Shown here: positions 2,698 to 60,515 of the stretch, piece by piece
Position numbering within the stretch: the first letter of the stretch is position 1
Layout: every line of letters starts with the position of its first letter
Assembly: GCF_004010195.1 (NCBI RefSeq)
Contig: NC_057718.1
Coordinates: forward strand, 99,311,470-99,375,469
Reading direction: 5' to 3'
DNA: 64,000 nucleotides
Source: Chiloscyllium plagiosum
Taxonomy: Eukaryota
The notes under the pieces: generated by a model
The model's input: the letters and a program-made list of their open reading frames with translations, nothing else
Told to the model about the DNA's origin: nothing
Database searches by the model: none
Translations under genes and position numbers: made by a program

Positions 2698-2826
2698 GGA
2701 GAAAGTGAGGACTGCAGATGCTGGAGACCAGAGCTGAAAAAGTGTTGCTGGAAAAGCGCAGCAGGTCAGGCAGCATCCAAGGAGCAGGAGAATCGACGTT
2801 TCGGGCTTGAGTCCTTCTTCAGGAAT
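2698..2826 (-). mobile_element. Short PLE terminal module (family F1) with CATGTT target-site duplication
   Basis: catgtt|aggagaaagtgaggactgcag...caggaat|catgtt. The same module recurs at 6660, 10961, 31229, 34097, 44492, 49146 and 56757. Confidence 0.85.
2791..2826 (-). ncRNA. Minimal type-I hammerhead ribozyme motif (F1), catalytic core intact
   Basis: Minus strand reads ATTC-CTGAAGA-A-GGAC-TCAA-GCCC-GAAA-CG-TC-GATT. CUGAnGA, GAAA and the UH triplet are present. Stem II has one mismatch. Confidence 0.75.
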
Positions 2827-3067
2827 CATGTTCCAAAGCACTTTGCAACCGGTGGAGTGTATTTAACGTGCGGTCACTAGTTGGAATGTAGGAAGCGAAT
2901 AAGAGACCACAATGTCAGCAAACACTCATAGTTATTTTTGGCAGAGGGAACATTTATCCTCTTTGGTAAAATAATGGGTGGTAGTGAGTGGCTCACTACA
3001 ACCTAAAGAGAGCTGTTGGCAGCCCTGGCAATGTTACAGACACCGCTCCATTTGGCATTAGTGCCCG

Positions 3068-3402
3068 GACACACACACCCACACACACACTCTCATACAT
3101 ACACACACACGCACTCTCTCACACATACGCACACATGCACACACACTCACACTCTCTCACACATACACACACACATACACACAGACATACACATACACAC
3201 ACGCACACATGCACATGCACACACTCACGCACACACACTCTCTCACACATACACACGGACATACATACACACGGACATACATACATACACACTCACACAT
3301 GCACACATACACAGATACACACATATTCACACGCACACACAGACACCCACACACAGACACCCACACACAGACACAGACACACACACAGACTCACACACAC
3401 AG
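3068..3402. repeat. Degenerate (CA)n-rich microsatellite
   Basis: cacacacac/catacacac/cagacac runs over ~335 bp. Source of the His/Thr-rich spurious ORFs. Confidence 0.97.
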
Positions 3403-3759
3403 AGTGAGCTGTAACAGTATGCCTTTTATGGGGTAATGAATGGAGCTTAGTGCCCTGGGAAACAATGCACCAGCTCAATTAACAGCTCGACACCTCTCGC
3501 CAGTGTGGGCTGCAATAGGGAATTAGCTGTGTCATTATTGACTCGTGATAGAGCAGGCTTTTTCACAGCGGCAGCTGCTGCTTGTACAATGCTTCATTGT
3601 GGCACTCCTAATCACATTAAGACTGCTTCATGCTGCACACCATCTGAAATATCTGAGGTCTCAGAATCACCTGGGTACGACTGAGTGGTGCTTTATGTAC
3701 ACCCCCATTTGCTGCCCATATCCAAGTGTTGCAGACTGGAATGGTCTGATGTCCAGGAC

Positions 3760-4128
3760 GATACAAGAACTAGGAGCTGGAGGAGGCCATTCAGCCCCTC
3801 GAGCCTGCCCCGCCATTTAATACCATCATGGTTGATCTCATCTCGGCCTGAAATCCACTTCCCTACCTGCTCTCCATGACCCTTCAATCCATTACTAATT
3901 AAAAATCTGTAACTCTCCTCCTTAAAGGTACTCAATTATGCATACTCATTTATTTACCCAAGCAGAAACATGTTACAGTATTTAAAAGACATTTGGATAA
4001 GCACATGAATCAGGAAGTTTTGTGGGGATATGCGCCAGAAGCAGGCAGGTGGGACTAGTTTAGTTTGGGACTATGTTCGGCACAGACTGGTTGGACCCAA
4101 GGGTCTGTTTCCATGCTGTATGACTCAA
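3760..4128. mobile_element. Two CR1 3'-end fragments (- then +)
   Basis: ggccattcagcccctcgagcctg (-) and tttaaaagacatttggataag...gggtctgtttccatgctgtatgactc (+). Confidence 0.75.
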
Positions 4129-4272
4129 TGTCACAAATTGTATGGAAGCACCTCAGACTGGAATGTGTTCCATGGAGAAAGCTTGTTTCCATCCGTTATT
4201 CAGTGTCAAATCTAAGACTTTTTTGGAAGGCACTTCTAAATATTTTGTGAATGGGTGTAATTTTTGGGGAAG

Positions 4273-5210: not shown

Positions 5211-5378
5211 CATATTTAAGGCTGAGATAGATAGATTTTTAACCAGTCAGGGAATCAAGGGTTATGGGGAAAGGGCAGATAAGTGGCTGTGAGGATCAGC
5301 TGTGATGCTATTGTATGACATAGCAGGCTCGAGGGGCCGAACGGTCTATGCCTGTTCCTCATTCCTGTGGTTATATGG
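5211..5378 (+). mobile_element. CR1 3' UTR fragment
   Basis: ggaatcaagggttatgggg...gcaggctcgaggggccgaa resembles 940-1050. Confidence 0.75.
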
Positions 5379-6544: not shown

Positions 6545-7285
6545 GATGTGATTTGATTTTTTATTGTCACGTGTACTTAAGGTGCAATGAAAAGTTTTGT
6601 TTTGAGTGCAGCATGAGCAGATCATACCTTACAAAGTGCGTTAGGGTAACAGAACAGAATAAGTAAAAACAAGGGCTGCAGATGCTGGAAACCAGATTCT
6701 AGACTAGAGTGGTGCTGGAAAAGCACAGCAGCATCCAGGGAGCAGGAAAATCGACCTTTTGGGCAAAAGCCCTTCATCAGGAATTGAGGTACAGAATACA
6801 GTGATACAGCTGCAGAGAAGGTGCACAGAGTGCAAGATCAACAATAGATTTGAAATTTGAGAGGTCCATTCAGAAGTCCAATAACTGCGGGGAAGATTCC
6901 ATGTTTTTGAATCTGTTGGTTCTTGGGTTTAAGCTTTTGTATCTTCTGCCTGATGGAAGAGGTTGGAAGAGATTATAACCGGGGTGGGAGGGCTCTTTGA
7001 ATATGATGGCTGCCCTTCCAATGTAGCAGGAAGGATAGATGGAGTCAATGGGTGGAAGTTTGATTTGCATGAGCTGTGTTCACAACTCCCTAGTTTCTTA
7101 CCGTCCTGGGCAGAGCAGTTGCCATATCAGGCTGTGATGCATCTGGATAGAATGCTTTCTGTGGTGCATCCACTAAAATCGGTAACTGTCTTTATGGTCA
7201 TGTTACACTTCCTTAGCCTCCTGAGGAAGCAGAGGTGTTGTTGTGCTTTCTTGGCTGTCACATCAATGTGGGTGGACCAGATGAA
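6545..7285 (-). mobile_element. Rex1/Babar-type LINE 3' end, interrupted by an F1 PLE module (6660-6784)
   Basis: ORF 6870-7070(-) has LPPIDSIY...EPSHPGYNLFQPLPSGRRYKSL. (ATTTG)n-like tail. ACAGAATA is duplicated around the F1 insert. Confidence 0.85.
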
Positions 7286-7442: not shown

Positions 7443-7525
7443 AATGAAGGGCTCCTGCTCGAAACGTCGATTTTCCTGTTTTTCGGATGCTGCCTGACCT
7501 GCTGTGCATTTCCAGCACCACTCTA
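7443..7525 (+). mobile_element. F1 PLE module, truncated within the hammerhead core
   Basis: atgaagggctcctgctcgaaacgtcgattttcctg...ggatgctgcctgacctgctg. Confidence 0.75.
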
Positions 7526-7570
7526 AAATTGGCTTTATGAGGGCAGTTCTTGTTGTTCAAGACAGTCCTG

Positions 7571-8139: not shown

Positions 8140-8795
8140 AAGTGCTGGAGAAACTCAGCAGGTCTGGCAACATCTGTGGTGAGAGAAACAGAGTTGACAA
8201 TTCAAATCCAGCAATCCTTCTTCAAAGTACCAGAGAAATATCAGATTGGACTTGATGTTTCTCTCACATCAGATGCTGCTGGATGTGCTGGTCTTTTCTA
8301 TATTTATTGTGGGTGTCATTGGCTGGGCCCAGCATTTATTACCCGTCCCTAGTTGCCCCTTGAGAAGGTAGGGTTGAGCTGCCTTCTTGGACCGCTGCAG
8401 TCCATGTGCTGTGGGTTGACCTACAATACCATTAAGGAGGGAATTCCAAGATTGTGACCCAGCGGCAATGAAGGAACGGTGATATATTTCCAACTCTGGA
8501 TGGCGAATGGTCCTGGTGGGGTCTTGCAGGGGGTGGTGTTCCCATGTATCTGCTGTCCTTGTCCTTCTAGATGGGAGTGGACATGGGTTTATTAGGTGCT
8601 GTCTGAGGATTTCTGGTGAATTTCTGCACTGCATCTTATAGATAGTACACACTGCTGCCACTGAGCGTCAGTGGTGGAGGGAGTGGATGTTTGTGGATGT
8701 GGTGCCAGTCGCGTGGGGGCTGCTTTGTCCTGGATGGTGTCAAGAAGCTTGACTGTTTTTATTTCAAATCTCCAGCATCTGCAGCATTTTCATTT
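8140..8795. mobile_element. Degenerate F4 PLE inverted pair (8140-8295, resuming ~8752) with a nested LINE
   Basis: gctggagaaactcagcaggtctggcaacatctgtgg is mirrored by cagatgctgctggatgtgctgg. Continues with ttcaaatctccagcatctgcag after the LINE. Confidence 0.55.
8305..8750 (-). mobile_element. Second LINE family (CR1/L2 group, here 'family C') 3' end
   Basis: LDTIQDKAA and IHSLHH.RSVAAVCTIYKM motifs on -. 3' end ...taataaatgctgggcccagcc. Repeated at 17685, 30710, 42315, 49990, 53245 and 54795. Confidence 0.8.
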
Positions 8796-9142: not shown

Positions 9143-9657
9143 TTATTAAAACTAGTTATGGTGTGTCACTGAAATGAAATCAAAATGGATTGCTCTTATA
9201 ATTAATTCTGCATGGTCCACCTCTCTCAACCGAAACTCTGCATTTCCATCAGGTAAGGCTAAGTGGGCCAAGTCTTCTGAAAAGCCTTACCTTTTCCTGC
9301 AATGATCTCCCTCCCCATGTTCGCCTCAGTCACACTTAGGTGTTGAATGCATTTTTTTTCAATTGCTTGTAACAGAGCGCATATATTCCACAGTCCTACA
9401 GTAATGTGTTCGCATCTCGCCTGATGTGGGGACTTCAGCTGCAAAGGAAGGCATTAGAAAATGTTGACAACTTTCCCTGGCACCCAATGGTCCAGTTCCA
9501 TCACAATAATCGCTACAACTGCTGCTGCTATCCTTTGCTACATCCTCTCTTTCCCTTCCATCCTTCCAGTTTAAGCTCCTATGTTCCATTGGTAGTGTTC
9601 CTAACTGGAGACCTGGTGTCACCTGCTCAGGAGGAGTATAATGACGTCTCTGAACAG

Positions 9658-10000
9658 AGTTAAAAATCACACAACACCAGGTTATAGTCCAGCAGGTTTA
9701 TTTGGAAACACTAGTTTTTGGAGCGCTGCTCCTTCATCAGGCGGTTGTGGAGAATAAGATTGTAAGACACAGAATTTATAGCAAAAGTTTACAGTGTGAT
9801 GTAACTGAAGTTATAATACTGAAAAAGATGGGGATTGTTTAAGTCTCTCATCTTTTAGAATGACCATGTTGGTTTCAGTTCTGTCATATGTAAATCGCAA
9901 ATCCTTTTTTGCTTCCAAATAAACCTGTTGGACTATAACCTGGTGTTGTGTGATTTTTAACTTTGTACACCCCAGTCCAACACCAGCATCTCCAAATCAT
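9658..10000. mobile_element. F2 PLE insertion: minus-strand 3' region joined to a plus-strand terminal copy, TSD TCTCTGAACAG
   Basis: gttaaaaatcacacaacaccaggttatagtcc (9659) is the reverse complement of ggactataacctggtgttgtgtgatttttaac (~9930). tctctgaacag flanks both sides. Confidence 0.85.
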
Positions 10001-10297
10001 CTCTGAACAGGTTGCTGAGAAAATGTGAACTTCTGGATCTGAACAGTACTCTTTTTCCCGCTTCAGGCAACTGTCTGTATGACCATGTTGGTTTCAGTTC
10101 TGTCATATGTAAATCGCAAATCCTTTTTTGCTTCCAAATAAACCTGTTGGACTATAACCTGGTGTTGTGTGATTTTTAACTTTGTACACCCCAGTCCAAC
10201 ACCAGCATCTCCAAATCATCTCTGAACAGGTTGCTGAGAAAATGCGAACTTATGGATCTGAACAGTACTCTTTTTCCCGCCTCAGGCAACTGTCTGT
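9860..10297. repeat. 219-bp tandem duplication (9860-10078 / 10079-10297)
   Basis: atgaccatgttggtttcag...caggcaactgtctgt occurs twice with about 3 mismatches. Confidence 0.95.
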
Positions 10298-10892: not shown

Positions 10893-11285
10893 AAGATGTG
10901 GAGTTACTGGTGTTGGACTGGGGTGGACAAAGTTAAAAAATTACACAACACCAGGTTATAGGAGAAAGTATGGGCTGCAGATGCTGGACATCAGAGTTGA
11001 GAGTGTGGTGCTGGAAAAGCACAGCAGGTCAGGCAGCATCCGAAGAGCAGGAGAGTCAAGTTTCAGGCACAAGCCCTTCATAAGGAATCCAGTTGAAGGG
11101 CTTATGTCTGAAATATCAATTCTCCTGCTCCTTGGATGCTGCCTGACCTGCTGTGCTTTTCCAGCACTACACTCTCAACACCAGGTTATAGTCCAACAGG
11201 TTTATTTGGAAGTATTAGCTTTTGGGGCATTGATCCTTCATTAGGTAGCTGTTGGACTATAACCTGATTTTGTGAGATTTATAAC
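10893..11285. mobile_element. F2 PLE module containing a nested F1 inverted pair (10961-11178)
   Basis: caacaccaggttatag is duplicated at ~10946 and ~11176. The insert arms ~10995-11080 and ~11094-11179 are reverse complements. Confidence 0.85.
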
Positions 11286-11724
11286 TCAGGTGATGAAACC
11301 ATAGCTGCAAATGATACAACATGCATGGCGTCACCAATGCTCTACAGTTGTATTAAGATATTTTGCTGTTAATTGCCAAACCCTTTGTAATAAAAGCAAA
11401 CAACCTGTTTGCCTTGCTAATTGCTTGTTATTGTTCAGGAAACAGAGTGTCAAAAAGTGGATCCCCGTAGCTGTGAAGAAAATTAGCAAAGAGTATCAAA
11501 GTTCTAATGTGTAGATTCAATAGGATTGACTTTCTTTGTCCAAATGGCAGAATACTTTCCACTGGCTTGTGTTTTCATCACTCTCAAAGATGGCATGAAC
11601 CATGTGACCATATCTGGGCTAAATGGCCTGCAGCAACTTCCTCTGTCTCCAATAATAGGTGTTCAGGAAGATGTCACCTCAGCACTGTCCCAATAGCACT
11701 TTTGTTCAAATCGTGACTATTGCA

Positions 11725-11992: not shown

Positions 11993-12588
11993 AACCAATG
12001 GTGGTGCTGGTGTCAGCAGAGAATTGTCCTTACAGTCTCTGTATGAGTGGCTGAAATTTGTCAGAAAGGTTTTGGAAGATGAAAGTCATCAGGTGAACTG
12101 TCAAAGGGCCACAACTCCCATCATTCCATTGCTGATGGCCTCCATTGTCCTTGCTTTCAAACTGAAATAACTCAGACCACTCCTGATGGCGGAAAAGCCC
12201 CTCAGTCCCACTGCAGCACTGCCACTGTCACAGAGATCACAAAGGGCCCTTTGGCCCATCCAATTTGCTCTTAGACACCATTGGCATCAGTTGAGGATCG
12301 CCGAGGCTTGACCCTATCAGGAACAGCCTAAAGGTGGGCGATAATCTCATTGGGAACTCTTCATTTGGGAGGACTAGCATTCAGCTTCCTCCCCACTCTC
12401 AAAAATGAAGCCGTTAGTCTTAAAGTTTTCAACGTTTTTTGAGGGACCTCCAGATCTAGACAGACAGAAGGGAAACCTGTCCACTAACTACCTCCATGGT
12501 TTAGATCTTATTGAAATTAGAAGCTGTTTGAGCAATTGTTTAAACCAGAACGTAGGAGCATATTACAGCAGGTGTTGGAATCTGTACT

Positions 12589-12778
12589 GAAACCAACCAA
12601 TGTTGGAGATCCCAGCGGGTCAGGCAGCATCCATGGAGAGAGAGCAAGCTAAGGTTTCAAGTCTAGATGACTCTTCATCAGAGCATGACGTGACGTCACC
12701 GAGACTGGAAACGTTAGCTTGCTCTCTCTCCATGGATGCTGCCTGACCCGCTGTGACCTCCAGCATTTGTTGTTTTCA
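12589..12778. mobile_element. F3 PLE terminal modules as a head-to-head inverted pair
   Basis: cagcgggtcaggcagcatccatggagagagagcaagctaa is mirrored by ttagcttgctctctctccatggatgctgcctgacccgctg. Confidence 0.85.
12648..12684 (-). ncRNA. Minimal type-I hammerhead motif (F3), core and stems I/II intact
   Basis: GCT-CTGATGA-A-GAGTC-ATCTA-GACTT-GAAA-CC-TT-AGC. Stem I is GCT/AGC and stem II is GAGTC/GACTT. The mirror arm shows the palindromic form GAAACGTTAGC. Confidence 0.75.
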
Positions 12779-14410: not shown

Positions 14411-15097
14411 TCCCCCTCTGAGTCACTATACCAGAGATTGGCATTTAACGAGCAATGCAGGCATGATGGGATGGATGGCCCCCTTCTGTCCTTCTCTGTG
14501 ATTCTCATTCCTTTAATTGGTTTTGACTCATACCATTCAACAATTGTAACTATCAATTATAGTCTTTGATTGACCCATCAGCATTCACAGGTTCTTCTTG
14601 TCTAGGGTGAGGTGAGGGGGAGAGAGGTTTCCACCACTCTCTGGGTGACAATAGTTACTGATTTCTATTCTAAATGGCTTCACTTTCCTGGTTACCTGAC
14701 AGCCACTGCTCTGGATCTTTCAGTGTCTCTCTCCCTATCCAATCTCGACAAACATTTCTGTCCGATCATTTTTCAACTGTATAAAGTCAGGGAAATGCTC
14801 ACCAATGTTCTGAATCAAACAAAGAACTGCAGAAATCTGATACAAAATCAGAAATTGCTGGAGAAAGGCAGCAGATTTGGCAACGTCTGTGGAGTGAATC
14901 CTCTGAAATCAGTCTCAATAAGTAAGCCCCTCTATCAATGGTAAATATACATTTTATATTTACCTTCCTTTCCCATGGCTCACTCTCCAGAAATGAACAC
15001 AGTTCTCCAAGTGAGTCCAGACAAAGCCATGCTCAATGAAGGCATCACTTTGTCATTTTTACATTATAAAGCCTTCAGATAAAGGCTAATAAGGATA

Positions 15098-19429: not shown

Positions 19430-19556
19430 ATGATGTGGAGGTGGCTGAGGAAGGAGCAGCACTAGTGCTTCCAAGTAAACCTGTTGGACTATAACCTGGT
19501 ATTGTGTGATTTTTAACTTTGTCCACCCCAGTCCAACACCGGCTCCTCCACTTCAT
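19430..19556 (+). mobile_element. F2 PLE module (hammerhead internally deleted) with short inverted end
   Basis: ctgaggaaggagcagc-actagtgcttcc...ccccagtccaacacc. Upstream atgatgtggaggtg is an inverted terminus. Confidence 0.75.
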
Positions 19557-25184: not shown

Positions 25185-26088
25185 TCTGAAAAAAACAGCA
25201 GATGCAATAAATCGGAAACAAAACAGAAATTGTTGGAAAAGCGCAGCAAGTCTGGCAGCATCTGTGGAGAGAAATCAGAGTTAATGTTTTGGGTCCAGTG
25301 ACCTGTGTTCTGAGGAAGGGTCACTCAATCCGAAAAGTTACTTACTCATGCCCCCCCTACACAGTAACAGCACTGAGGTGGAACGAGTGGAGAGTGTCAA
25401 GCTCCTGGGAGTGGTCATCCACAACAAGCTTTCTTGGACTCTTCATGTGGACGCACTGGTTACAAAGGCCCAACAACGTCTCTTCTTCCTCAGGCAGCTG
25501 AGGAAATTTGGCATGACAGCGAATACCCTTGCCAACTTTTATAGGTGCGCCATCAAGAGCATTCTATCTGGATGTATCACTACCTGGTATGGCAACTGTA
25601 CCATTGAAGGTCGGAGACAGTTACAGAGAGTGGTGAACTTGGCCCAGACAATCACAAAGGCCAACCTCCCATCTACAGAATCCATCTACCAGGCCCACTG
25701 TCAAGGAAAGGCCGCCAGCATTCTCAACGATCCATCCCACCCTGGCAATGTTTTTCTACAACCTCTACCATGGGGAGAAGGTACAGAAGTCTGAACACAC
25801 GCTCCAGCCGGTTTCATAACAGTTTCTACCCTACTGTTGTTAGAATATTGAATGGACTTACAAACTCTTAACATTCACCTGTACCTGTGTTTTTGTTTTT
25901 ACCGCTGTTTACCTATTATTTATTTATCTATGCTATTTAACTCTGTGATCTGCCTATTGCTCGCAAGACAAAGCTTTTCACTGTGCCTCGGTACACGTGA
26001 CAATAAATTCAATTCAATTCAATTAACTCTGATTTCTCTTCACAGGTACTGCCAGACTTGCTGAGCTTTTCCAGTAATTTCTGTTTTT
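25185..26088. mobile_element. F4 PLE inverted pair whose plus arm is split by a Rex LINE
   Basis: aaacagaaattgttggaaaagcgcagcaagtctggcagca...gagaaatcagagttaa is mirrored by ttaactctgatttctc...tgccagacttgctgagcttttccagtaatttctgttt (26023-26088). Hammerhead-like gttctgaggaagggtcactcaatccgaaa at 25307-25335. Confidence 0.8.
25342..26022 (+). mobile_element. Rex1/Babar-type LINE 3' end with (AATTC)n tail
   Basis: ORF 25348-25794 has VERVESVKLLGV..LSW..KAQQRLFFLRQLRKFG..FYRCAIKSILSGCITTWYG..DPSHP. Confidence 0.93.
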
Positions 26089-26454
26089 CTTAGTGTAACT
26101 ATAGTGACCAAAATGGCTAATTGCTTCTCTTCTGTACTATTGTTCAGGATAAAAGTAATACAAACCAATTCTTTATTGAACTCAAGGTTATCCGTTTATT
26201 ATATTAAAAGACTTATTCTTAAAGCAAGAAACAATTACTGGTGAGCGGCTAAGCTCTGATACAGAATTGATATTATATCCCCTCAATCCCATATACTAGT
26301 GCACTCACACAACAGAAAAAGTCAAGTGTCTGTGGAGATGATGGTCTTTCCAGTGGTACTCACATCCTGTGGAAAGATTTAAAAAACAGCACTGGAGTCA
26401 GTAGGATCTCTCCATTCATGCCAAAGCACTCTGACAATGTATTTAAAATATTTA

Positions 26455-28206
26455 ATTCTTTGAGTTTGAGATTAATTTATTGTTGTCACATGTGCCAAGA
26501 TACAGTTAAAAGTGTGCTATACAGGCAGATCATATCACAAAAGGTGTATCTGTGTAACAGAACCGAGTGCAAAATACAGTGTTACAGTTGCAGAGAAGGT
26601 GCAGAGAGAGACAGGTCAGAACTAACATTTGAGAGGTTCATTCAAAAATCTAACAGCAGTGAGGAAGAAGCTGTATTTGAATCTGACAGCAGTGGGGAAG
26701 AAGCTGTATTTAAATCTGATGGCAGTGGGGAAGAAGCTGTATTTGAATCTAACAGCAGTGGGAAAGAAGCTGTACTTCAATCTGACAGCAATGGGGAAGA
26801 AGCTGTATTTAAATCTGACGGCAGTGGGGAAGCAGCTGTACTTCAATATGACAGCAATGGGGAAGAAGCTATATTTGAATCTGACAGCAATGGGGCAGAA
26901 GCTGTATTTGAATCTAACAGCAGTGAAAAGAAGTTCTTTTTGAATCTGATAGCAGTGAGGAAGAAGCTGTATTTGAATCTGACAGCAGTGGGGAAGAAGC
27001 TGTACTTCAATATGACAGCAATGGGGACGAAGCTGTATTTGAATCTGACAGCAATGGGGAAGAAGCTGTACTTCAATCTGACAGCAATGGGGAAGAAGCT
27101 GTATTTGAATCTGACAGCAGTGGGGAAGAAGCTGTATTTAAATCTGACGGCAGTGGGGAAGAAGCTGTATTTGAACCTGACAGTAGTGGGGAAGAAGCTG
27201 TATTTAAATCTGATGGCAGTGGGGAAGAAGCTGTATTTAAACCTGACGGCAGTGGGGAAGAAGCTGTATTTGAATCTGACAGCATTGGGGAAGAAGCTGT
27301 ATTTGAATCTGACAGCAGTGGGGAAGAAGCTGTATTTAAATCGAACGGCAGTGGGGAAGAAGCTGTATTTGAATCTGACAGCAGTGGGGAAGAAGCTGTA
27401 CTTAAATCTGAACGGCAGTGGGCAAGCAGCTGTATTTGAATCTGATAGCAGTGGGGAAGAAGCTGTATTTGAATCTGATAGCAGTGGGGAAGAAGCTGTA
27501 TTTAAATCTGACGGCAGTGGGGAAGAAGCTGTATTTGAACCTGACAGTAGTGGGGAAGAAGCTGTATTTAAATCTGACGGCAGTGGGGAAGAAGCTGTAT
27601 TTGAATCTGACAGCAGTGGGGAAGAAGCTGTATTTGAATCTGACATCAGTGGGCAAGAAGCTGTATTTAAATCGGACGGCAGTGGGGAAGAAGCTGTATT
27701 TGAATCTAACAACAGTGGGGAAGAAGCTGTACTTCAATCTGACAGCAATGGGGAAGAAGCTGTATTTGAATCTAACAGTAGTGGGGAAGAAGCTGTACTT
27801 CAATATGACAGCAATGGGGAAGAAGCTGTACTTCAATATGACAGCAATGGGGAAGAAGCTGTATTTGAATCTGAAAGCAGTGGGGAAGAAGCTGTATTTG
27901 AATCTGAAAGCAGTGGGGAAGAAGCTGTATTTGAATCTGATAGCAGTGGGGAAGAAGCTGTATTTAAATCTGAAAGCAGTGGGGAAGAAGCTGTATTTGA
28001 ATCTGATGGCAATGGGGAAGAAGCTGTATTTAAATCTGACAGCAGTGGGGAAGAAGCTGTATTTGAATCTAACAGCAATGGGGCAGAAGCTGTATTTGAA
28101 CCTAACAGCAGTGGAAAAGAAGCTGTACTTCAATCTGACAGCAATGGGGAAGAAGCTGTACTTGAATCAGTTTGTACATGTATTTAAACTTTTATATCTT
28201 CTGCCC
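26455..28206 (-). mobile_element. Rex1/Babar-type LINE 3' end hosting a 33-bp array
   Basis: 26470-26646 matches the 3' UTR of the copies at 6560-6870 and 23040-23225. 28169-28206 resumes the element (tttaaacttttatatcttctgcc). Confidence 0.85.
26647..28168. repeat. Minisatellite, 33-bp unit (GAATCTGACAGCAGTGGGGAAGAAGCTGTATTT), ~46 copies
   Basis: Contiguous units without spacers and 11-aa periodic translations. Single-base indels near 26925 and 27410. Confidence 0.98.
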
Positions 28207-31228: not shown

Positions 31229-31352
31229 GAGAGAAAGTGAGGGCTGCAGGTGCTGGCAAGTCAGAGTCGAAGAGTGTGGCGTTGAAAAAGCACAGAACAT
31301 CAGTCAGTATCCGAGGAGCAGAAGAATCCATGTTTCAGGCATAAGCCCTTCA
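31229..31352 (-). mobile_element. F1 PLE module with ~15-bp TSD (TCTGAyCTGTCCTTG)
   Basis: tctgacctgtccttg precedes and tctgatctgtccttg follows. Decayed hammerhead gtttcaggcataagcccttcatc. Confidence 0.8.
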
Positions 31353-31569
31353 TCTGATCTGTCCTTGTCAACACAGTATATCTGTGGCTGTAACTGTTGG
31401 GTTGGACATGGACGCTTCCTCTCTAGATCCCAATATACTTGCTGCTGTGCAAACCTTGTTTATTATAGACAGCATCTGCATCTGGCAAAAATAACTGACA
31501 GATCATGGAATATCCCTTGGGACTTCTAGATCATGCTCAAAGCTTGGTAGTACAATCTCTTTGCAGGTA

Positions 31570-32020
31570 TGGAATCATACTGCGTAGAAAAGGCCTTTTG
31601 GCCCATTGAATCTTGGCTGACTCATTCACGATCCCCACATTCCAGCACTAGCTCTATAGCCTTGAATGTTGTTTCTCGGGCTCATCCCAGTACTTTTTAA
31701 AAGTTAAAAGTCACACAACACCACACTTACCAGTGTTGTGTGTGATTTTTAACTTTGTCCACCCCAGTCCAACACCAGCACCTCCACATCATTTTGAAAA
31801 GTTGCGAGGTTTCCCACATCAACTGCCCTTCCCAGGCACTGCATTCCAGATTCCCACCATCCTCTGGGTGAAAAATGTTTCCCTCAAATCCCCCCCGGCC
31901 AAACCTCTGCATTTCACCTTGAAATGATGCCCCCTCATTGCCGACCCTTCAGCATAGGGGAACACTCCTCTCTCTCCACGCTAACCGTTCCCCTCATAAT
32001 TACATACACCTCAATCAGTT
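31570..32020 (-). mobile_element. Old CR1 3' end with a nested F2 hairpin-like terminus (31700-31792)
   Basis: aaagttaaaagtcacacaacacc is mirrored by gtgttgtgtgtgatttttaacttt, inside CR1-like ttccagattcccaccatcctctgggtgaaaaa. Confidence 0.7.
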
Positions 32021-32069
32021 TTAATGTCTTGTTTGATTGGCTGTTTGTTTGCAACTGTGAGTTGGAGGA

Positions 32070-32185
32070 GATTTATTTGGAAGCACTAGCTTTTTGGAGT
32101 CCTGCTCCTTCATCAGGTAACTACTGAAAGCTAGTGCTTCCGAATAAACCTGTTGAACTATAACCTGGTGTTGTGAGATTTCAGT
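32070..32185. mobile_element. F2 PLE inverted pair
   Basis: tttatttggaagcactagcttt is mirrored by aaagctagtgcttccgaataaa. Confidence 0.75.
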
Positions 32186-34096: not shown

Positions 34097-34210
34097 GAGT
34101 CGAGCGTGTGGCGCTGGAAAAGCACAGCCGGTCAGGCAGTATCCAAGGAGCAGGAGAATCAACGTTTTGGGCATGAGCCCTTCATCAGGCAGTCCTCACT
34201 TTCTCCAAAC
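34097..34210 (-). mobile_element. F1 PLE module with short inverted terminus, TSD TTCCCATCAG, nested in a second-family SINE
   Basis: ttcccatcag flanks both sides. gcagtcctcactttctcc is the inverted 3' end. Confidence 0.8.
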
Positions 34211-44344: not shown

Positions 44345-45055
44345 ACTGCACCTTCACTGAGAGTGTTTGATGGAGACAGTGTGGAGGATTCTTTACTCTG
44401 TATCTACAGCTGCGCTGTACCTGCCCTGTGGATGCTGGATAGGGATACAGTTAAGGGAGCTTTACTCTGTATCTAACTCAGTATCTAACCTATTCCTGAT
44501 GAAGGGCTTTTGCCTGAAACATCGATTCTCCTGCTCCTCGGATGCTGCCTGACTCGGTGTGCTTTTCCAGCACCACACTAATCTTGACTCTAACCCAGTG
44601 CATACCTGTCCTGGAAGCATTTGTTGGGGACAGTGTAGAGGGATCTTTACTCTGTATCTAAATCTATACTGTACCTGCCCTGTCGATACTGGATAGGGAC
44701 ACTGTACAGGGAGCTTTACTCTATATCTAAACCTATACTGTACCTGCCCTGTGGATACTGGATAGGGACACTGTACAGGGGGCTTCACTCTGTATCTTAC
44801 CCAGTGCATACCTGTCCTGAAAGTGTTTGATGGGGATGGTATAGAGAGAGATTTACTCTATATCTAACCCTGTGCTATACTTGTCCCGAGAGAATTTGAT
44901 GATGCTATTATAGGTGAAGCTTTACTCAGTATCTAACTGGAGTTTTAATGAGACTACATGAAGGGGGATTTACTCTATATTTAAACTGGGTTGTCCTAGG
45001 CCAGTGGGTGTTTGCAGGGATGGCATGAAAGGAGGTTTCTCTTCATCTAAACCCT
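44345..45055. repeat. Degenerate 69-bp tandem repeat (~8-9 units) interrupted by an F1 module
   Basis: (c)tttactct anchors at 44391, 44460, 44645, 44714, 44783, 44851 and 44920. Confidence 0.9.
44492..44527 (+). ncRNA. Minimal hammerhead motif (F1) at the 5' end of PLE module 44492-44592
   Basis: ATTC-CTGATGA-A-GGGC-TTTT-GCCT-GAAA-CA-TC-GATT. Confidence 0.7.
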
Positions 45056-47000: not shown

Positions 47001-47200
47001 TGATGTGGAGGTGCTGGTGTTGGACTGGGGTGGACAAGGTCAGAAGTCACATGACACCAGGTTATCGTCCAACAGGTTCATTTGAAGTCGCAAGCGTTCG
47101 GAGCGCTGCTCCTACGTCAGGTGAAGTCTCCCGTGCTCCAAAAGCTTCCGATTACAAATAAACCCATTGAACTATAACTGGTGTTGTGTGACTTCTGACT
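47001..47200. mobile_element. F2 PLE inverted pair
   Basis: gtcagaagtcacatgacaccaggttat is mirrored by ataactggtgttgtgtgacttctgac. Confidence 0.8.
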
Positions 47201-47244
47201 TAGAAGGACCAGAGAAAGGAGAACTGTTCAACAGAACGCGGTAT

Positions 47245-47940: not shown

Positions 47941-48090
47941 AGTTAAAAACTCTTATTCTCCACAACCACCTGATAAAGGAGCGTCGCTCCGAAAGCTAGT
48001 GCTTCCAAACAAACCTGTTGGATTATAACCTGGTGTTGTGTGATTTTTAACTTTGTCCACCCCAGTCCAACACCGGCACCTCCACATCAT
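47941..48090 (+). mobile_element. F2 PLE module, TSD ATTGAATGA, near-intact hammerhead
   Basis: CAC-CTGATAA-A-GGAGC-GTC-GCTCC-GAAA-GC-TA-GTG. G8>A; stem I is CAC/GTG. Confidence 0.85.
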
Positions 48091-49145: not shown

Positions 49146-49703
49146 AAGTCAAAGAGGGTGGTGCTAGAAAAGCACAGCAGGTCAGACAGCAGCCGAGGAG
49201 CAGGAGAATCGACGTTTCGGGCAGGAGCCCTACATCAGGAATGAGGGGGTGCCATAGGGGGCTGAGGGATGAATGGAAAGGGGGTGGGGCTGGGGGGAAG
49301 GTAGCTGGGAATGTGATAGGCAGATGAAGTTGAGGAGTGAAAGTTAATTTTTAAAAAATCTTGTAAACTCCAGCCAATGTAATCCTAACTGATTCAACCC
49401 CTCCTCATACATCAGTCCCAACCAATCCTGCCCATTTGCTGCACACTGTGGCAGCCCAGGTCCAGTGGAAGTGGGTTGGAGTCTGAAGGTGATATTAAGA
49501 GAGTGAGTGATCAGGAGCTGATTGGACTACAATCTGCTGGCATACACTCCTCTTGAAGTTGAGGGGTGAAAGTGATAGGTCAGAGAGGAGAGTGGAGCAG
49601 ATAGGTGGGAAGGAAGATGGACAGGTGGGACAGGTCAAGAGGGCTGTGCCGAGTTGGAAGGTTGGATCTGGGATGAGATGGGGGGGAGGGGAAATTAGGA
49701 AAC
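49146..49703 (-). mobile_element. F1 PLE 3' end with upstream UTR, interrupted by an inverted templated insertion
   Basis: The hammerhead module 49146-49242 continues into sequence shared with 41740-41932. Confidence 0.85.
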
Positions 49704-50000
49704 CCTCCCTTGCTGGATGAAAGCCGGGAGGTTGATAATGTTTATAAAATGGTCATGGGGTAAAGGTAACTGCCCAGCCAGGATTCCCCAAACTCAGGGC
49801 TGTATGCCAGCAGATTGTAGTCCAATCAGCTCCTGATCACTCACTCTCTTAATATCACCTTCAGACTCCAACCCACTTCCACTGGACCTGGGCTGCCACA
49901 GTGTGCAGCAAATGGGCAGGATTGGTTGGGACTGATGTATGAGGAGGGGTTGAATCAGTTAGGATTACATTGGCTGGAGTTTACAAGATTTTTAAAAATT
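49346..50000. repeat. ~200-bp near-perfect inverted repeat (49346-49546 / 49801-50000)
   Basis: aatttttaaaaaatcttgtaaactccagcc...ctggcataca versus tgtatgccag...ggctggagtttacaagatttttaaaaatt. Confidence 0.97.
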
Positions 50001-50825
50001 TCATTTTGTGGTATGTGGGCTGGGTCAGCATTCATTAAACATCCCTAGTTGCCCCCTTGAGAAGGTGGGGGTGAGCTGCCTTCATGAACCGCTGCAGTCC
50101 ACCTGCTATGGGTTGACCCACAATGCCCATAGGGAGGGAATTCCAGGATTTTGACCCAGCGACAGTGAAGGAACAGTGATATATTTCCAAGTCAAGATGG
50201 TGCGGGGCTTGGAAGGGAACTTGCAGAGGGGTAGTGTTCCCATGTATCTGCTACCCTTGTCCTTCTAGATGGAAGTGGTCGTGGGTTTGGAAGGCACTAT
50301 CTGAGGGTCTTTGGTGAATTTCCACAGTGCATCTGGGAGCTAGTACACACTGCTGCTACTGAGCGTTAGTGGTGGAGGGAGAGTGGATGTTTGTGGATGT
50401 GGTGCCAGTTAAGTGGGGGTTGCTTTGTCCTGGATGATTTCAAGAATGAGGGGGTTCACATAGAAGCCAATAAAAGGACTAGACAGGGTAGATACAGGAA
50501 GGATGTTCCTGATGACTGGGAGTCTAGAACTAGGTGTCACAAACCTAAGTACATGGGTAGGCCATTTAGGACTGAGATGAGGAGAAACTCCTTCACCTGG
50601 AGAGCGGGGAGTTGGAGAAATTCTCTGCCACCTGAAAGCAGTTGAGGCCCAAACATTGAATGATTTCAAAAAGAAGTTAGATACAGCATTTGAGGGCAAA
50701 GGGATCAAAATATGTGGGGGTAAAGTAGAAACAGGCTATGGATGATCAGCCATGATTGTAATGAAGATGGAGCAGACTCTTGGGGTGAATGGCCTAATCC
50801 TGCTCCTATTTTCTATCTTCCTATG
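49915..50825. mobile_element. CR1 3' end (+) interrupted by a family-C LINE (-, ~49990-50437)
   Basis: GRPFRTEMRRNSFTWR on +. The insert is colinear with 8305-8740. caaga is duplicated at the junctions. Confidence 0.82.
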
Positions 50826-52190: not shown

Positions 52191-53443
52191 GTCCCGTGAA
52201 CAAATGCTGGCCTTGCCGGTTATGCCCTCATCTCACGACAAAATTTTTAAAATTGTCTAAAGTGCTGTGACAGGGATGGACAAGAAACACTGAAATATAT
52301 CACAAGTGAATTTCGCACCTTCTCAGTTCCATGTTGAGCTGCAATACTGGGAGGTGAAGTCAGACAGTGAGATGTGGTGTCTTTGGGAAGAAAGAGAACA
52401 GTAATCTGGTGCTTCATGTGTCCAGACGATAGAGATTTAGGACAATTAAATCCTGTCCCATCAGCAACAGGGTCTTCGATTTTTCATAGTTTGCTCTGAC
52501 AACATTTTATTGAGTACATGTGTAGTCGGTGCCCCATTATGTAAGGTGGTTGTAAATAGCTAATGGGGAAGTGCTGTCATTTGGGTGGGAAACACGGTGT
52601 ACTATTACCTATTCAAATACCATGTCCTTTGATGCTTGAGAGTTAATTGAACCCATTTGCCTCTTTCTCCTCCTGATTACTAGGGCCTTACTGTGCCCTC
52701 CTTATCTGTCCTCCTAATCGGGCAGTTTTAAAAGGACTGCAGTTCTCAGTAAGTTAGCAAGCCCGTCTTTCCTCTTCCTCCGTCTTGCACTCCCACACGT
52801 TTCTTCCCTCCCGGGTCAAAAAGGGTGCGTCTGGTCAAAGCGTAAACCTTCAAACGCAATGCGCCGTACCATCAGCTGATTAGTAAAGACTGCCACACAT
52901 TGTAATGGCGCTGGCTGTTCACTGTGACAAATATACTGAGGCTGTTGGGTAAATGGGAAGAAATTTAGAGGGAGAATTATGTGCGCAGGTCTAGGGAGAA
53001 CACAACTCTCCCACCTACCCTTGTTGGAAATTCTCACCACGCTTTGGTGTGTCGGGGGGGTGGGCTGGTTCTGTCACCATCTCCCCACCACCTGGGAGAG
53101 AACTTGAGGAGGGTACACATACCTCTGGGTAGGCCCCACTCCGCAAAACTGGGGCCTACAGCCACAAATGCCCCACCCCACACCCCGAGTCACCACACCA
53201 AACCTCCAAGGCCAACAGACTCCATTGTGGGGCAGGCTCCCTCAACACCAGCAATCCTGAGACTCCCTCCCGAACGGCGTTGTGGGTCTAGCTATCGCAC
53301 ACGGACTGCGGCCCTTCACGAAAGCAGCTCAGCACCATCTTCCCCAAGGGCAGCTAGGGACCAATGATAGGTCGCTGGCCCAGCCAGCGATGCCCACGAA
53401 TGACTGAAAAAAAAACAGCCACTCTTTGTACAGTTTCAAACTC

Positions 53444-53569
53444 TGATGTGGAGGTGCTGGTGTTGGACTGGGGTGGGCAAAGTTAAAACTCACACAACAC
53501 CAGGTTATAGTCCAACAGGTTTATTTGAAATCACAAGCTATCGGAGCGCTGCCCCTTCGTCAGGTAGCT
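53444..53569 (-). mobile_element. F2 PLE module with 12-bp TSD AGTTTCAAACTC
   Basis: TSD at 53432-53443 and 53570-53581. Minus strand reads TAC-CTGACGA-A-GGGGC-AGC-GCTCC-GATA-GC-TT-GTG. Confidence 0.9.
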
Positions 53570-56142: not shown

Positions 56143-56962
56143 GTACAACACGGAAACAGACCCTTCGGTCCAACTCATCCATATCCTAAATTAATCTAGT
56201 CCCACTTGCCAGTATTTGGCCTATATCCCTCTAAACCCTTCCTATTCATATATCCTTCCAGATGCCTGTTAAATGTTGTAATTGTACCAGCCTCCACCAC
56301 TTCCTCTGGCAGCTCATTCCATACACATACCACCCTTTGCATGGAAAAGTTGCCCCTGAGATCCCTTTTTAATCCTTCCCCTCTCACCTTAAGCCTATGC
56401 CTTCTAGTTCCGCACTCCCCCCCCACCTGGGGGAAAATACTTTGTCCATTTGCCCTATCCATGCCCCTCATAATTTTGTAAACCACTATAAGGTCTCCCT
56501 TCAGCCTCTGACACTCCAGGGAAAACAGCCCCAGCCTGTTCAGCCACTCCCTGTAGCTCAAATCCTCCAACCCTTGGAAATCTTTTCTGAACCCTTTCAA
56601 GTTTCACAACGTTCTTCCTATAGTAGGGAGATCAGAATTACACGCAGTGTTCCAAAGGTGGCCTAACCAATGTCCTGTACAGCCGCAACATGACCTCCCA
56701 ACTCCTGTACTCGATACTCTGACCAATACTCTGACCAATAATCTGACCAATACTCCTTCCTGAAGAAGGGCTCATGCCCGATACGTCGATTCTCCTGTTC
56801 CTTGGATGCTGCCTGACCTGCTGCGCTTTTCCAGCAACACATTTTCAGCTCTGATCTCCAGCATCTGCAGTCCTCACTTTCTCCTACTCTGACCAATAAA
56901 GGAAAGCATACCAAACGCCTTCTTCACTATCCTACCCACCTGCGACTCCGCTTTCAAGGAAC
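56143..56962 (-). mobile_element. CR1 3' end interrupted by an F1 module (+, 56757-56885)
   Basis: ORF 56196-56600 LGLFSLECQRLKGDLI..QRVVCVWNELP. tactctgaccaata is repeated at both junctions. Confidence 0.92.
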
Positions 56963-57674: not shown

Positions 57675-58160
57675 TCTGGAGGGCCAATATTTACCTCTCA
57701 GTGCACATTTGACTTCTCCAAGGCAACTGGGGATGGATGATAAATACTGGACCTGACTAGCGTTGCCTGAATGAATTGAGAAAAAAAGATTACTGAAACG
57801 TATCAGCCCAGTGGGATCTTGCTGTGTGCAGACTGGTGGCTGCATCGTCCACACCACAACACGGGCTGCACGTCAGAAAGGACTACACTGTGAAAGAGGT
57901 TCACATAGGCCAGTAACCCATCACCCTTTAGTTACATGCAAACAGCCCTTTGCCTATAGTACTGCCTCATCCAGTCAGGCACCAGGGTAGCAGTGTCTCT
58001 GATACTGTCAGCCAGGGCTCCCTGATTGGGCCAGGTTAACAGCCCAAATCGGGGACCTCCATAAGGTCCAACAGGGCTGACTTCCTAACAATCACTGCAC
58101 GTTGGTTTGAGAGTGCTGTGAGCCGTTTGGTGGATGTGACATGCGCTTTTTAAATGCGAT
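57675..58160 (+). mobile_element. DeuSINE-like (SacSINE1/AmnSINE1-type) remnant, interrupted
   Basis: ggccaatattttacctctca, gtgggatcttgctgtgtgca and tail gtgacatgcgctttttaaatgc resemble the Deu domain and tail as I recall them. Confidence 0.55.
57891..58099 (-). mobile_element. Probable solo LTR
   Basis: TG...CA termini. Flanks cactg / cgttg are consistent with a decayed 5-bp TSD. CCAAT box (ccaatcagggag) on -. Splits the DeuSINE-like element. Confidence 0.6.
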
Positions 58161-58898
58161 TCAATTCGAAAGCAGATTCAGCCTTGTGAACAGGCATCAT
58201 CGAACCCCCCAAGGGGGAGACATGATGTCATATTACGGCACTTTGATCCGCACCAGCATTGATTCCACTACAGCCAGGTGTGAAGACCAACGTAATTACT
58301 TTGGGGGACATTCAAATTCCATCTGTAAAGGCTGGAAATGCTAACTAGGGCCAGACAATCGGAGCATCTGTGTCCTCATGTTACCTGTGATGCAATACTC
58401 CTGTTTCCTCATCCTCTTGAATTACATGAGGAAGGTTTATATGTGCGCCCTGACTTCATTGAAAATTGAGCTAATTTCGATCAATTGACCAGCTATTAGT
58501 TAAAAGATTCATCTCCATCTCAATCAGGGTCAGGGGTAATCTGTTGCAGAGTGAATATGCAGGAGATGCTTCTCAAATGTCATGTTGTTTCACAAGGCAA
58601 TCTCCTTTTGTTCTTTACACACGATGTGGCACAATGAGTTTTCAGTGAGTCACTGTATTGTACGCTGCGGTGTGAAACGGAGTTTGGCTGTGTGTGAGTG
58701 GGCGTCGGCAGCCCCAGGATAACCCACTTCTGGGTGGCAAGGCACAAAACGCAAAGTAGGTCACAGCCAAGTGCCCACGCAGAGGGAAAAACCAGCACAG
58801 ACCAGTACGGAACCTGTATGAAACCAGAGCAAGATCTACTGACGTATACTGGCTTTGATCCAGTGGATTCATTCTGGAGGTGACCACAAGTCCTCGAG

Positions 58899-59212
58899 TC
58901 ACGGTGGCACAGTGGTTAGCACTGCTGCCTCACAGCGCCAGAGACCCAGGTTCAGTTCCCACCTCGGGCAACTGTCTGTGTGGAGTTTGCACATTCTCAC
59001 TGTGTCTGCGTGGGTTTCCTCCGGGTGGTCTGGTTTCCTCCCACAGTCCAAAGATGTGCAGGTCAGGTGAATTGGCCGTGTTAAATTGCCCATAGTGTTA
59101 GGTGAAGGGGTAAGTGTAGGGGAATGGGTCTGGGTGGGTTGCTCTTCGGAGGGTTGATGTAGACTTGTTGGGCCGAAGGGCCTGTTTCCACACTGCAAGT
59201 AATCTAATCTAA
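58899..59212 (+). mobile_element. HE1-like SINE, tail-to-tail with a CR1
   Basis: Full head-core; the (TAATC)n tail abuts catagagatgtacagc. Confidence 0.93.
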
Positions 59213-60203
59213 TCATAGAGATGTACAGCATGGAAACAGACCTTTCGGTTCAACTCATCCATGCCGACCAAATATCCTAAATTAGTCTTGTCCATTTGCC
59301 AGCACTTGGCCCATATCCCTGTAAACCATTCTGATTCATATATCCATCCAGATGCCTTTTAAATGTTGTAATTGTACCAGCCTCCACCACTTCCTCTGGC
59401 AGCTCATTCCATACACGCACCACCCTCTGTGTGAGAAACTTGCCCCCTAGGTCCCTTTTATATCTTTTCCCTCTCACCCTAAACCTATGTTCTTTAGTTC
59501 TGGACTCCCCCCACTTGGGGGAAAAGACCTTGCCTATTTATCCTATCCATGCCCCTCATAATTTTGTAAACCTCTATAAGGTCATCCCTCAGCCTCTGAC
59601 ACTCCAGGGAAAACAGCTCCAGCCTGTGCAGCCTCTCCCTGTAGCTCAAATCCTCCAACTCTGGCAACATCCTTGTAAATCTTTTCTGAACCCTTTCCAG
59701 TTTCACAACATTCTTCCTCTCGCAGGGAGATCAGAATTACACGTAGTATTCTAAAGGTGACCTAACCAATGACTTGTACAGCAGCAACGTGACCTCCCAA
59801 CTCCTGTACTCAATACTCTGACCAATAAAGGAAAGCATGCCAAACGCCTTCTTCACTATTCTATTCATCTGCAACTCCACTTTCAAGGAGCTATGAACCT
59901 GCACTCCAAGGTCTCTTTGTTCAGTAACTCTCCCCAGGACCTTACCATTAAGTGTATAAGTCCTGCTAAGATTTGTTTTCTCAAAATGCAGCACCTTGCA
60001 TTTATCTGAATTAAACTCCATCTGCCACTTCCCAGCCCATTGGCCCATCTGGTCAAGATCCTGTTGTAGTCCGAGGTAACCTTCTTCGCTGTACACTACA
60101 CCTCCAATTTTGCAGTCATCTGTAAACTTACTAACTATGCCTCCAATGTTCATATCCAAATCATTTATATAAATGACGAAAAGCAGTGGATCCAGCACTG
60201 ATC
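59212..60203 (-). mobile_element. CR1 (HER1-like) LINE, 5'-truncated
   Basis: GSVLDPLLFVIYINDLD..FTDDCK..WQMEFNSDKCKVLH. Confidence 0.94.
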
Positions 60204-60399
60204 CAACGATCATTCTGAATTTTCTCGATTACTCCACGGTTAGAGCCGAGACTGCCCCTCATCAGAGCTTTCTGTTCATCATCACATTTGTCTTCATTTT
60301 AGTTTCAGTATGTTCCTTCTCCACAGCGACCACTATATCTTCCACCTTTATAACTGTAGTGATAAACCCTTGATAAAAACACATCATGCTCATTAAAAT

Positions 60400-60515
60400 G
60401 ATTGAATCTCAGCAGATCTGAAACATATATGGGGAGAAAGCAAGAGTTAACCCAAAAGTTGAGTTCTGAAGAAGGGTGATTAGACTCGAACTGATAAATC
60501 TGCTTTCTCTCCACC
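60400..60515. mobile_element. Decayed F4-like PLE inverted pair
   Basis: ggggagaaagcaagagttaa is mirrored by tgctttctctcc. Decayed hammerhead gttctgaagaagggtgattagactcgaa. Confidence 0.5.

Follow-up and report, generated by a model that had tools for sequence, protein, structure and literature searches.

The 64,000-nucleotide stretch of Chiloscyllium plagiosum DNA analysed here (C9:99311470-99375469, in a 3.56-Gb assembly of 101,977 contigs; hereafter the window) is strewn with short repeat modules that are very probably dead DNA, copied from the end region of Penelope-like elements (PLEs), each bearing a minimal type I hammerhead motif predicted to cleave only as a dimer or when aided by a protein. 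The modules are real and are located where a first-pass annotation of the window had placed them. That annotation counted about 20, which is too low: BLAST with family references finds 32 fragments (ten of family F1, 15 of F2, two of F3, four of F4, and one that matches just the flank of the F1c reference), and with three F4 arms added, one at 25310-25345 and two that form a decayed pair at 60430-60515, at least 34 module fragments are present (F1 10, F2 15, F3 2, F4 7). Eight head-to-head inverted pairs lie in the window. The division into four families, F1 to F4, is upheld there, and two extra families of common architecture, F5 and F6, come on top in the flanking 400 kb. The density, put earlier at about one module per 3 kb, is correct or slightly low, as F1 and F2 alone amount to 371 fragments in 1.01 Mb of non-N sequence sampled by BLAST from four chromosomes.

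The architecture proposed for the modules, which runs stem I, CUGANGA, one nucleotide, stem II, GAAA, NN, U, H and stem I again, holds in F1-F4 and likewise in F5 and F6. The majority sequence of F1 (72 copies) has ucauuc as the 5' strand of stem I, the core CUGAUGA-A-GGGC-uuau-GCCC-GAAA, CGUC at positions 15.2-17 and GAUUCU as the 3' strand of stem I; that of F2 (28 copies) has, in the same order, aaccac, CUGAUGA-A-GGAGC-agc-GCUCC-GAAA, GCUA and GUGCUU. Stem II is GAGUC/GACU in F3 (four copies), GGGUC/GACUC in F4 (one intact copy), GGGU/ACCC in F5 (ten copies) and GUUACCU/(A/G)GGU(G/A)A(C/U) in F6 (four copies). CUGANGA, GAAA, U16.1 and H17 (not G) stand in the majority sequence of all six families, and within families U16.1 is kept in 70 of 72 F1 and 24 of 28 F2 copies, and H17 in 70 of 72 and in all 28. 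The extra base after A9 noted earlier is also there: the base bulged between A9 and 10.1 is A in five families and U in F6, and 97 of the 100 matches to the strict descriptor described below have it. Helix III consists of A15.1-U16.1 around a palindromic 15.2-16.2, as had been claimed, with a majority of ACGU in F1, F4 and F5 and of AGCU in F2; in F6 it reads AUGU in three of four copies (a G.U pair) and ACGU in the other. Positions 15.2 and 16.2 are paired in 52 of 72 F1, 26 of 28 F2 and one of four F3 copies.

The six families keep stems I and II paired by compensatory changes around this common core, so the covariation asserted in the first-pass annotation stands. In the family majorities, 23 of 24 stem II positions pair, against a mean of 13.6 and a maximum of 17 in 265 re-pairings of strands between families. 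The first two pairs of stem I form in 12 of 12 cases, with three pair types each (re-paired mean 5.6, maximum 7; slid controls 1-2 of 12). The majority at 10.1-11.1 is G-C in five of six families, F3 resting on four copies only. An alignment of 137 rows fitted to a covariance model (A3) gives the same picture: 81.6% of its cells are paired, compared with 75.4 +/- 0.4 after shuffling, and changes on both sides of a pair occur in 69 cells, compared with 15.0 +/- 3.3; none of 500 shuffles reached either value, and slid partners pair in 8-68%. The 10.1-11.1 column of A3 holds GC in 94 rows, GU in 33, AU in three and other combinations in seven, and the G.U pairs are consistent with CpG decay of C11.1-G12. 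Decay of the motif falls largely on two CpGs, this one and the CG of ACGU; the losses of pairing at 15.2/16.2 in F1 are chiefly CA or TG, as CpG decay predicts. Fully intact copies number 33 of 72 in F1 and seven of 28 in F2.

The motif is also far more frequent than chance allows once enough sequence is considered. A strict descriptor (CTGANGA, 0 or 1 nt, a stem II of at least 4 bp, a loop of 3-10 and GAAA) has 51 matches in 464 kb around the window, where ten first-order shuffles give 0-3, and 100 matches in 1.064 Mb from four chromosomes, where five shuffles of each region give 0-3 per region. Within the window alone enrichment is weak: CTGANGA..GAAAC occurs three times against 1.27 expected, a number that 15 of 100 shuffles reach, and a second count of the bare motif gives 8 against 3.75. 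Most strict matches are repeats of only a few families, so it is the count of families with the motif at one and the same place that provides independent evidence. From 12 copies of five families (alignment A2, without F2) a covariance model, R1, was built; a MAFFT alignment of all six families (A1) had been dropped because F2 was displaced in it by one column. R1 has 14 matches in the window at E<=1, two of them seeds, and 143 matches at E<=0.01 in 1.054 Mb, 12 of them seeds. A search of this kind had been proposed with the first-pass annotation.

What ties these modules to PLEs is the sequence upstream of them. Some F1 copies extend upstream, and a search of the same genome with that part returned copies 96-98% identical. 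Fourteen of 19 loci of subfamily F1a run upstream into one common reading frame, broken at differing points, whose end reads ...GLLYIGETGRLLAERFREH...LGTLQPQGMN, with the stop of this open reading frame (ORF) about 160 nt upstream of the hammerhead. The end of the ORF matches the Pfam GIY-YIG profile PF01541 at 23.6 bits (cut-off 22.6, E 6.4e-5). Searched against its own genome, it gave 137,872 first-look candidates, 150 of which were scored, at 92-100% identity; a genome search with the Pfam GIY-YIG profile itself gave a single match, on a 1-kb contig, and was uninformative.

For F2, the best matches in the genome have common upstream sequence of up to 1.5 kb, and at least 1.5 kb of element, bearing an ORF remnant, runs unbroken up to the hammerhead. 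In an old F2 copy this remnant is open for 396 aa; it is 33% identical to the F1a endonuclease part over 92 aa (E 1e-9) and shares 51% identity with residues 581-859 of a public protein of 881 aa in which RVT_1 occupies residues 370-559. The old copy itself ends, by 5' truncation, before the reverse transcriptase (RT) region. An RVT_1 match at the same locus (L174) was rejected as the RT of this copy, as it lies 2.5 kb further on with no common sequence between, and probably belongs to another element. Judged by the public relative, with its RVT_1 before the aligned part, the endonuclease would lie C-terminal to the RT. The closest named public protein match to the ORF remnant is from the shark Chiloscyllium punctatum; a shark gene model named PPP1R12A-like contains a stretch 86% identical to the Penelope ORF remnant, probably a transposon piece in a predicted gene. 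On sequence grounds, then, the link to PLEs is established for F1 and F2. The earlier assignment of the modules to Penelope-type elements gains support from this, since the longer copies of both families reach the end of a GIY-YIG ORF and all sequence features of minimal hammerhead ribozymes (min-HHRs) given by Cervera and De la Pena (2014, PMC4209133) are present.

The modules also bear marks of how they were inserted. Positions in them are numbered relative to C3 of the hammerhead. The 3' ends fall at two places: of 19 F1a loci, 12 end at about +125 and seven at about +88-93, and in F2 the ends form clusters at 76-86 (41 high-scoring segment pairs, HSPs) and 117-121 (35 HSPs). Two end sites 35-40 nt apart are the optional tail of PLEs. 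Truncation of copies at the 5' side is heavy and at variable points, and an inverted pseudo-long terminal repeat (pseudo-LTR) piece lies upstream of one long F1a copy (L082). Target-site duplications of 11-17 nt, judged by eye, flank five of the 19 F1a loci. Some solo copies have exact flanking repeats of 9-14 nt; these were found in 14 of 56 such copies for F1 and in three of 20 for F2, numbers too small to pin down the 5' junction. A strict test finds a head-to-head partner for 31 of 140 F1 and 12 of 47 F2 copies, and about 20 of the 53 copies that this test scored as long are, by eye, further head-to-head copies.

The 5' ends of those HSPs in 1.064 Mb (BLAST) are concentrated just before the ribozyme. 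In F1, 141 of 272 start at -12 to +4, with a mode at -4 (35 HSPs); in F2, 48 of 99 do so, with modes at -6, -3 and -2. About half of the copies begin 2-6 nt upstream of C3. The modal start of F1 sits in TCATTCC, which resembles an initiator (Inr) element; long copies of diverged F1 subfamilies have TTATCT at about -36 to -29, and long F2 copies have TATAAAT at -40 to -34. In several solo copies a G precedes the first base that matches; a reading of this G as a cap signature is not established, as the boundary is not objectively definable across subfamilies.

These observations can be put together in a single scheme. The pseudo-LTR promoter would consist of a TATA-like box 30-35 nt upstream of the start together with, in F1, the Inr-like motif, and transcription of the element would start a few bases ahead of the hammerhead, so that the 5' strand of helix I comes first in the RNA. 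The RT likely initiates internally, at one of two sites that lie about 85 and 125 nt downstream, as PAc, a PLE of the anole, does in vitro; it would then run off the 5' end of the RNA, leaving a stub of 90-130 nt, and head-to-head pairs likely arise from a strand switch or from extension of both nicked DNA strands. In the ribozyme, helix III would be a single A-U pair around CG or GC, so that two RNAs would have to pair through ACGU or AGCU to complete it, and the predicted cut would fall after GUC, CUA or GUU, 28-29 nt from C3. With one A-U pair as helix III the monomer is expected to be inactive, and the hammerhead is predicted to self-cleave only as a dimer or with the protein of the element. 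Dimers of min-HHRs have only low activity in vitro (PMC4209133), and the anole motif cuts only with its protein (PMC11167929). Because the stubs retain the whole hammerhead, most of the template RNA was likely uncut when it was copied. Tentatively, and with some hesitation, I suggest that most of the approximately one million genomic copies are run-off mini-cDNAs of this kind, in which initiation about 85 or 125 nt from a capped 5' end was followed by copying of an uncut hammerhead and, frequently, by a flip to the other strand.

Several results count against this scheme, in whole or in part. A peak of 5' ends at the cut site was sought and not found, +26 to +31 holding just 11 of 272 F1 and four of 99 F2 HSPs, so the copies show no sign of cleavage before reverse transcription. 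Placing the start of transcription at the common 5' end relies on sequence motifs and on BLAST end points good to 2-3 nt, and copies with an exact flanking duplication have leaders of anything from 0 to 16 nt. As for the hammerhead, Rfam gives no hammerhead match in the window at the gathering score, and the 13 matches that appear at E up to 10 do not include one. The rows of A3 that belong to one family share descent, and the covariation accordingly rests on about six independent families. Helix I has just 2-4 bp, the third pair of F1 being U.U and that column being unpaired in 101 of 137 A3 rows. The hammerhead junction is absent from the minimum-energy folds of both monomers and dimers, which is not decisive, and for the F1 dimer cofolding predicts a 13-nt quasi-palindromic duplex, GAAACGUCGAUUC (+20 to +32 from C3), which would sequester G12-A14 and compete with the core. 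In a single-cell poly(A) data set, the RNA reads over an F1a copy do not pile up at any start or end; 92% of them continue into unrelated flanks and both strands are covered, which is consistent with read-through of dispersed copies. Finally, a Pfam search finds no GIY-YIG domain in the decayed F2 remnant.

Some of these points lend themselves to other explanations. What if the common 5' end does not mark the start of an RNA, but rather a preferred stop or template-switch point of the RT on a longer RNA, with the folded hammerhead or the near-palindrome TTCCTGAAGGAA as possible obstacles? The starts are spread over about 10 nt instead of falling on one base, the variable leaders beside clear flanking duplications at times include short duplications of the first bases, and the palindromic start of the motif is often used at head-to-head junctions, all of which a stop point would explain. 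However, two unrelated flank contexts, those of F1 and F2, each place a TATA-like box 30-35 nt ahead of the most frequent start, the Inr-like motif lies exactly at the start of F1, and a polymerase copying from 3' to 5' would run into the structure from its 3' side (+31) and not at a point 4 nt past its 5' side. I therefore regard a stop point as unlikely, while keeping it in serious consideration. It is also conceivable that the motif is hammerhead-shaped but is kept for something other than cleavage, such as a structure at the RNA 5' end that binds or positions the protein of the element. The presence of the whole motif in stubs and the rarity of starts at the cut site agree with such a role, as does the shortness of helix I. 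Published work finds min-HHRs to have low activity in vitro and leaves room for other functions (PMC4209133), and hammerhead mutants of the anole PLE insert unaffected in vitro, with no RNA-seq reads starting or ending at the cut site (PMC11167929). Nevertheless, C3-A9, G12-A14, U16.1 and H17 are invariant over six families while the stems vary and compensate, as is expected of a ribozyme, and the anole motif does cleave in the presence of protein, with a hammerhead-like C3G/G8C rescue (PMC11167929). A role without cleavage thus seems rather improbable.

The nature of the repeats can be questioned as well. Non-LTR retrozymes are small non-autonomous tandem hammerhead repeats that spread via circular RNA; they derive from PLE pseudo-LTRs, and a recent preprint reports them in the sole Chondrichthyes genome it sampled (bioRxiv 10.64898/2026.07.22.740005). 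The modules are likewise short and non-coding. Among 211 recognisable cores in 1.064 Mb, however, there is no regular tandem array. These cores include 14 head-to-head pairs in which both cores are readable and 19 same-strand neighbours within 1 kb, irregularly spaced and often of differing families, and because of this arrangement of units the retrozyme reading does not fit. The ends of the units do not lie at the cut site, unlike those of circle-derived units, and F1 and F2 are continuous with an ORF. That the modules are retrozymes is thus very improbable. Even harder to credit is a chance resemblance to hammerheads within short interspersed nuclear elements (SINEs) or miniature inverted-repeat transposable elements (MITEs), in which case a DNA transposon would have supplied the inverted pairs as its terminal inverted repeats. 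The bare motif counts in the window barely exceeding chance, the silence of Rfam and the hairpin look of the inverted pairs would all sit well with it. Against it, the same core stands at the same place in six families with different stems, the modules are continuous with a GIY-YIG ORF, and their flanking duplications vary in length and their 3' ends alternate between two sites; family covariation and ORF continuity already contradict it. On balance, PLE end copies with a hammerhead that would need a partner remain my preferred reading of the modules.

Individual modules of the window illustrate the various states of decay; bit scores and E-values given with them are those of R1. Among the F1 copies, the module at 2697..2826 (-) runs from -4 to +125 with C3 at 2822, and has both boxes and GUC intact and an A.C mismatch in stem II (GGAC/GCCC; 37.5 bits), while that at 44492..44621 (+), with C3 at 44496, is the top non-seed match at 39.1 bits and has intact boxes, a G.U at 10.1-11.1 and ACAU instead of ACGU as helix III (CpG decay). 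In the remaining F1 copies the motif itself is altered. G12 is altered at 6694..6784 (-), where GAAA has become AAAA, and at 34107..34189 (-). The 5' part of the hammerhead is decayed at 7444..7537 (+; E 0.14), and the core reads CAGAUGA at 31260..31356 (-), a module with a 9-nt flanking duplication, CAAGGACAG. The copy at 49155..49242 (-) has pseudo-LTR-like sequence upstream and U in place of A9, and the module at 56753..56885 (+), which spans -7 to +125, has U in place of A13 and an 11-nt flanking duplication, TCTGACCAATA. One F1 head-to-head inverted pair, 10960-11088 (-) and 11088-11173 (+), has both cores decayed and gives a weak microRNA (miRNA)-like hairpin match.

F3 is represented by a single head-to-head pair at 12560..12778, which supplied a seed of the model (38.8 bits). 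Its (-) arm, with C3 at 12681, reads CUGAUGA-A-GAGUC/GACUU-GAAA-CCUU and has two helix defects, a G.U at 10.1-11.1 and ACCU as helix III; its (+) arm at 12695-12778 retains GAAACGTT. Of the F4 copies, a head-to-head pair at 25198-25296 (-) and 25310-25345 (+) keeps both boxes in its (+) arm, likewise supplied a model seed, and is followed by a fragment of an ORF of long interspersed nuclear element (LINE) type. This ORF, 25285-25791, which starts at the F4 hammerhead, was rejected as a PLE ORF because it is a LINE-type fragment (Pfam ALKBH8_N). Other F4 remains are a decayed module at 8140..8228 (-), fragments at 14833..14889 (-; +47 to +103) and 26023..26091 (+; +27 to +95), and a decayed head-to-head pair at 60430..60515, which closes the range covered by the first-pass annotation and whose (+) arm, 60466-60515, reads CUGAAGA-A-GGGUG..GACUC-GAA with a deletion (25.3 bits). 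Both boxes are thus kept in four copies of the window, 44496(+), 12681(-), 2822(-) and 25310(+), each with one or two helix defects. The first-pass annotation had called the first three of these cores intact; CUGANGA, GAAA and U-H are kept in all three, but the helices are not free of defects.

The F2 copies begin with a fragment at 1120..1185 (+; +16 to +81) that precedes the start of the range annotated earlier. Modules lie at 47951..48090 (+; -26 to +120), where G8 is altered (CUGAUAA) and stem II GGAGC/GCUCC, GAAA, GCUA and stem I CAC/GUG are intact, and at 53438..53565 (-; -2 to +125), where A13 is altered (E 0.13). The module at 9654..9746 (-; -6 to +86) has an altered G12, and that at 19445..19556 (+) an internal deletion within the hammerhead. 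Two fragments at 9910-10000 and 10129-10219 (both +) start at +30, 1 nt beyond the predicted cleavage site; they lie in a local duplication at 219-bp spacing (9816-10000 and 10035-10219) and so represent one event counted twice. A 3' fragment at 10895..10961 (-; +53 to +118) and a tail fragment at 31739..31792 (+; +67 to +120) are also present, together with three head-to-head pairs, at 11176-11246 (-) and 11249-11286 (+), at 32069-32118 (-) and 32126-32181 (+), and at 47001-47123 (-) and 47135-47201 (+).

Two of the head-to-head pairs in the window, at 11009-11165 and 12616-12750, fold as long hairpins and give weak matches to plant and animal miRNA families of Rfam (E 0.01-0.5); head-to-head hairpins are a likely source of false annotation of miRNA precursors or MITEs. 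The window contains several other repeats. Fragments of LINE-type RTs (Pfam ALKBH8_N, RVT_1) at 25285-25791 (+), 59740-60228 (-) and 61833-62473 (-) are unrelated to the Penelope modules, as is a 33-bp tandem array of more than 40 units at 26271-28184, one frame of which is open for 638 codons. Two short repeat families are abundant, D20 (14322, 21105, 33028, 34874, 35313, 54502) and D9 (7695, 8977, 10344, 42865, 59026 and others), and one of the two has a tRNA-like segment (GGCTGGAATCGAACCC...) and so is probably a SINE. An inverted repeat at 49340-49551 and 49796-50007 has arms of 212 nt that are 97% complementary and lie 244 nt apart.

How do these modules compare with hammerheads and retroelements already described? 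Canonical type I hammerheads of animal satellites and of the Rfam families have the same catalytic boxes and cleave after H17. The modules differ from them in having neither loop-loop contacts between helices I and II nor a closed helix III. Dimeric hammerheads of PLEs were reportedly the topic of work by Lunse and co-workers in 2017. The class as such is a known one, correctly recognised here in another genome: the literature has included minimal PLE hammerheads since 2014, and it also covers the tail, the inverted copies and initiation at internal sites. A search of the literature on Penelope retrotransposons and ribozymes in sharks returned one review only and no description specific to this genome.

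The closest likeness is to the min-HHRs of metazoan PLE pseudo-LTRs (Cervera and De la Pena, 2014, PMC4209133), which share with the modules the type I layout, the bulge between A9 and 10.1, G10.1-C11.1, a one-pair helix III around a palindrome, a short helix I, many compensating consensus families per genome, and an arrangement of mostly solitary copies with opposite-strand pairs about 100 bp apart. However, helix II is mostly 4-5 bp here (7 in F6), as opposed to the 6-8 bp that the paper gives for Schistosoma. Its text does not cover the present host, a shark-type genome, and the density here, about one fragment per 2-3 kb, greatly exceeds the figure of thousands per genome given there. Non-LTR retrozymes (Cervera and de la Pena, 2020, PMC7229834; Li et al., 2026, 10.64898/2026.07.22.740005) are likewise short non-coding hammerhead repeats related to PLE pseudo-LTRs, but are tandem, of canonical type I and linked to circular RNA, whereas the modules are dispersed or head to head and have the minimal motif. 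Insertions of PLEs in general, according to Craig et al. (2021, PMC8557442), show much 5' truncation, an inverted 5'-truncated neighbour, a 30-40-bp tail and a hammerhead in the pseudo-LTR, as here. In that work, the new Naiad and Chlamys clades are without canonical hammerheads and have an N-terminal endonuclease, unlike the elements of this genome, in which it is placed C-terminally as in Penelope, Poseidon and Neptune.

Mechanistically, the most informative counterpart is PAc, a Poseidon-clade PLE of Anolis carolinensis (Frangieh et al., 2024, PMC11167929). In PAc, as probably in the modules, the hammerhead is at the start of the transcribed unit and downstream of the pseudo-LTR promoter, and in both systems two end points, the tail, are 30-40 nt apart and about 60-100 nt beyond the predicted cut site. 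Extension in PAc can proceed on both DNA strands, in keeping with the head-to-head pairs, and its main template is uncut RNA. The end points of PAc come from in vitro assays, whereas those presented here are taken from genomic copies, and the ORF here does not start inside the hammerhead, the AUG of CUGAUGA in subfamily F1b opening 17 codons only. Furthermore, the sections of the PAc report at hand do not describe a mass of stubs made from the first 90-130 nt alone. Two observations are worth keeping: the scale, since 371 F1 and F2 fragments per 1.01 Mb extrapolate to about one million in 3.56 Gb, and the sharp 5' end common to the stubs, which precedes the ribozyme by a few bases and hardly ever coincides with the cut site. 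Provided that this end is the start of the RNA, the copies map the PLE promoter, the start sites of reverse transcription and the uncut state of the ribozyme, all of which are hard to obtain experimentally. If they are also products of run-off, then this shark genome would be a natural, million-fold record of these features, the transcription start included, from which the poorly known copying mechanism of PLEs could be tested by sequence alone.

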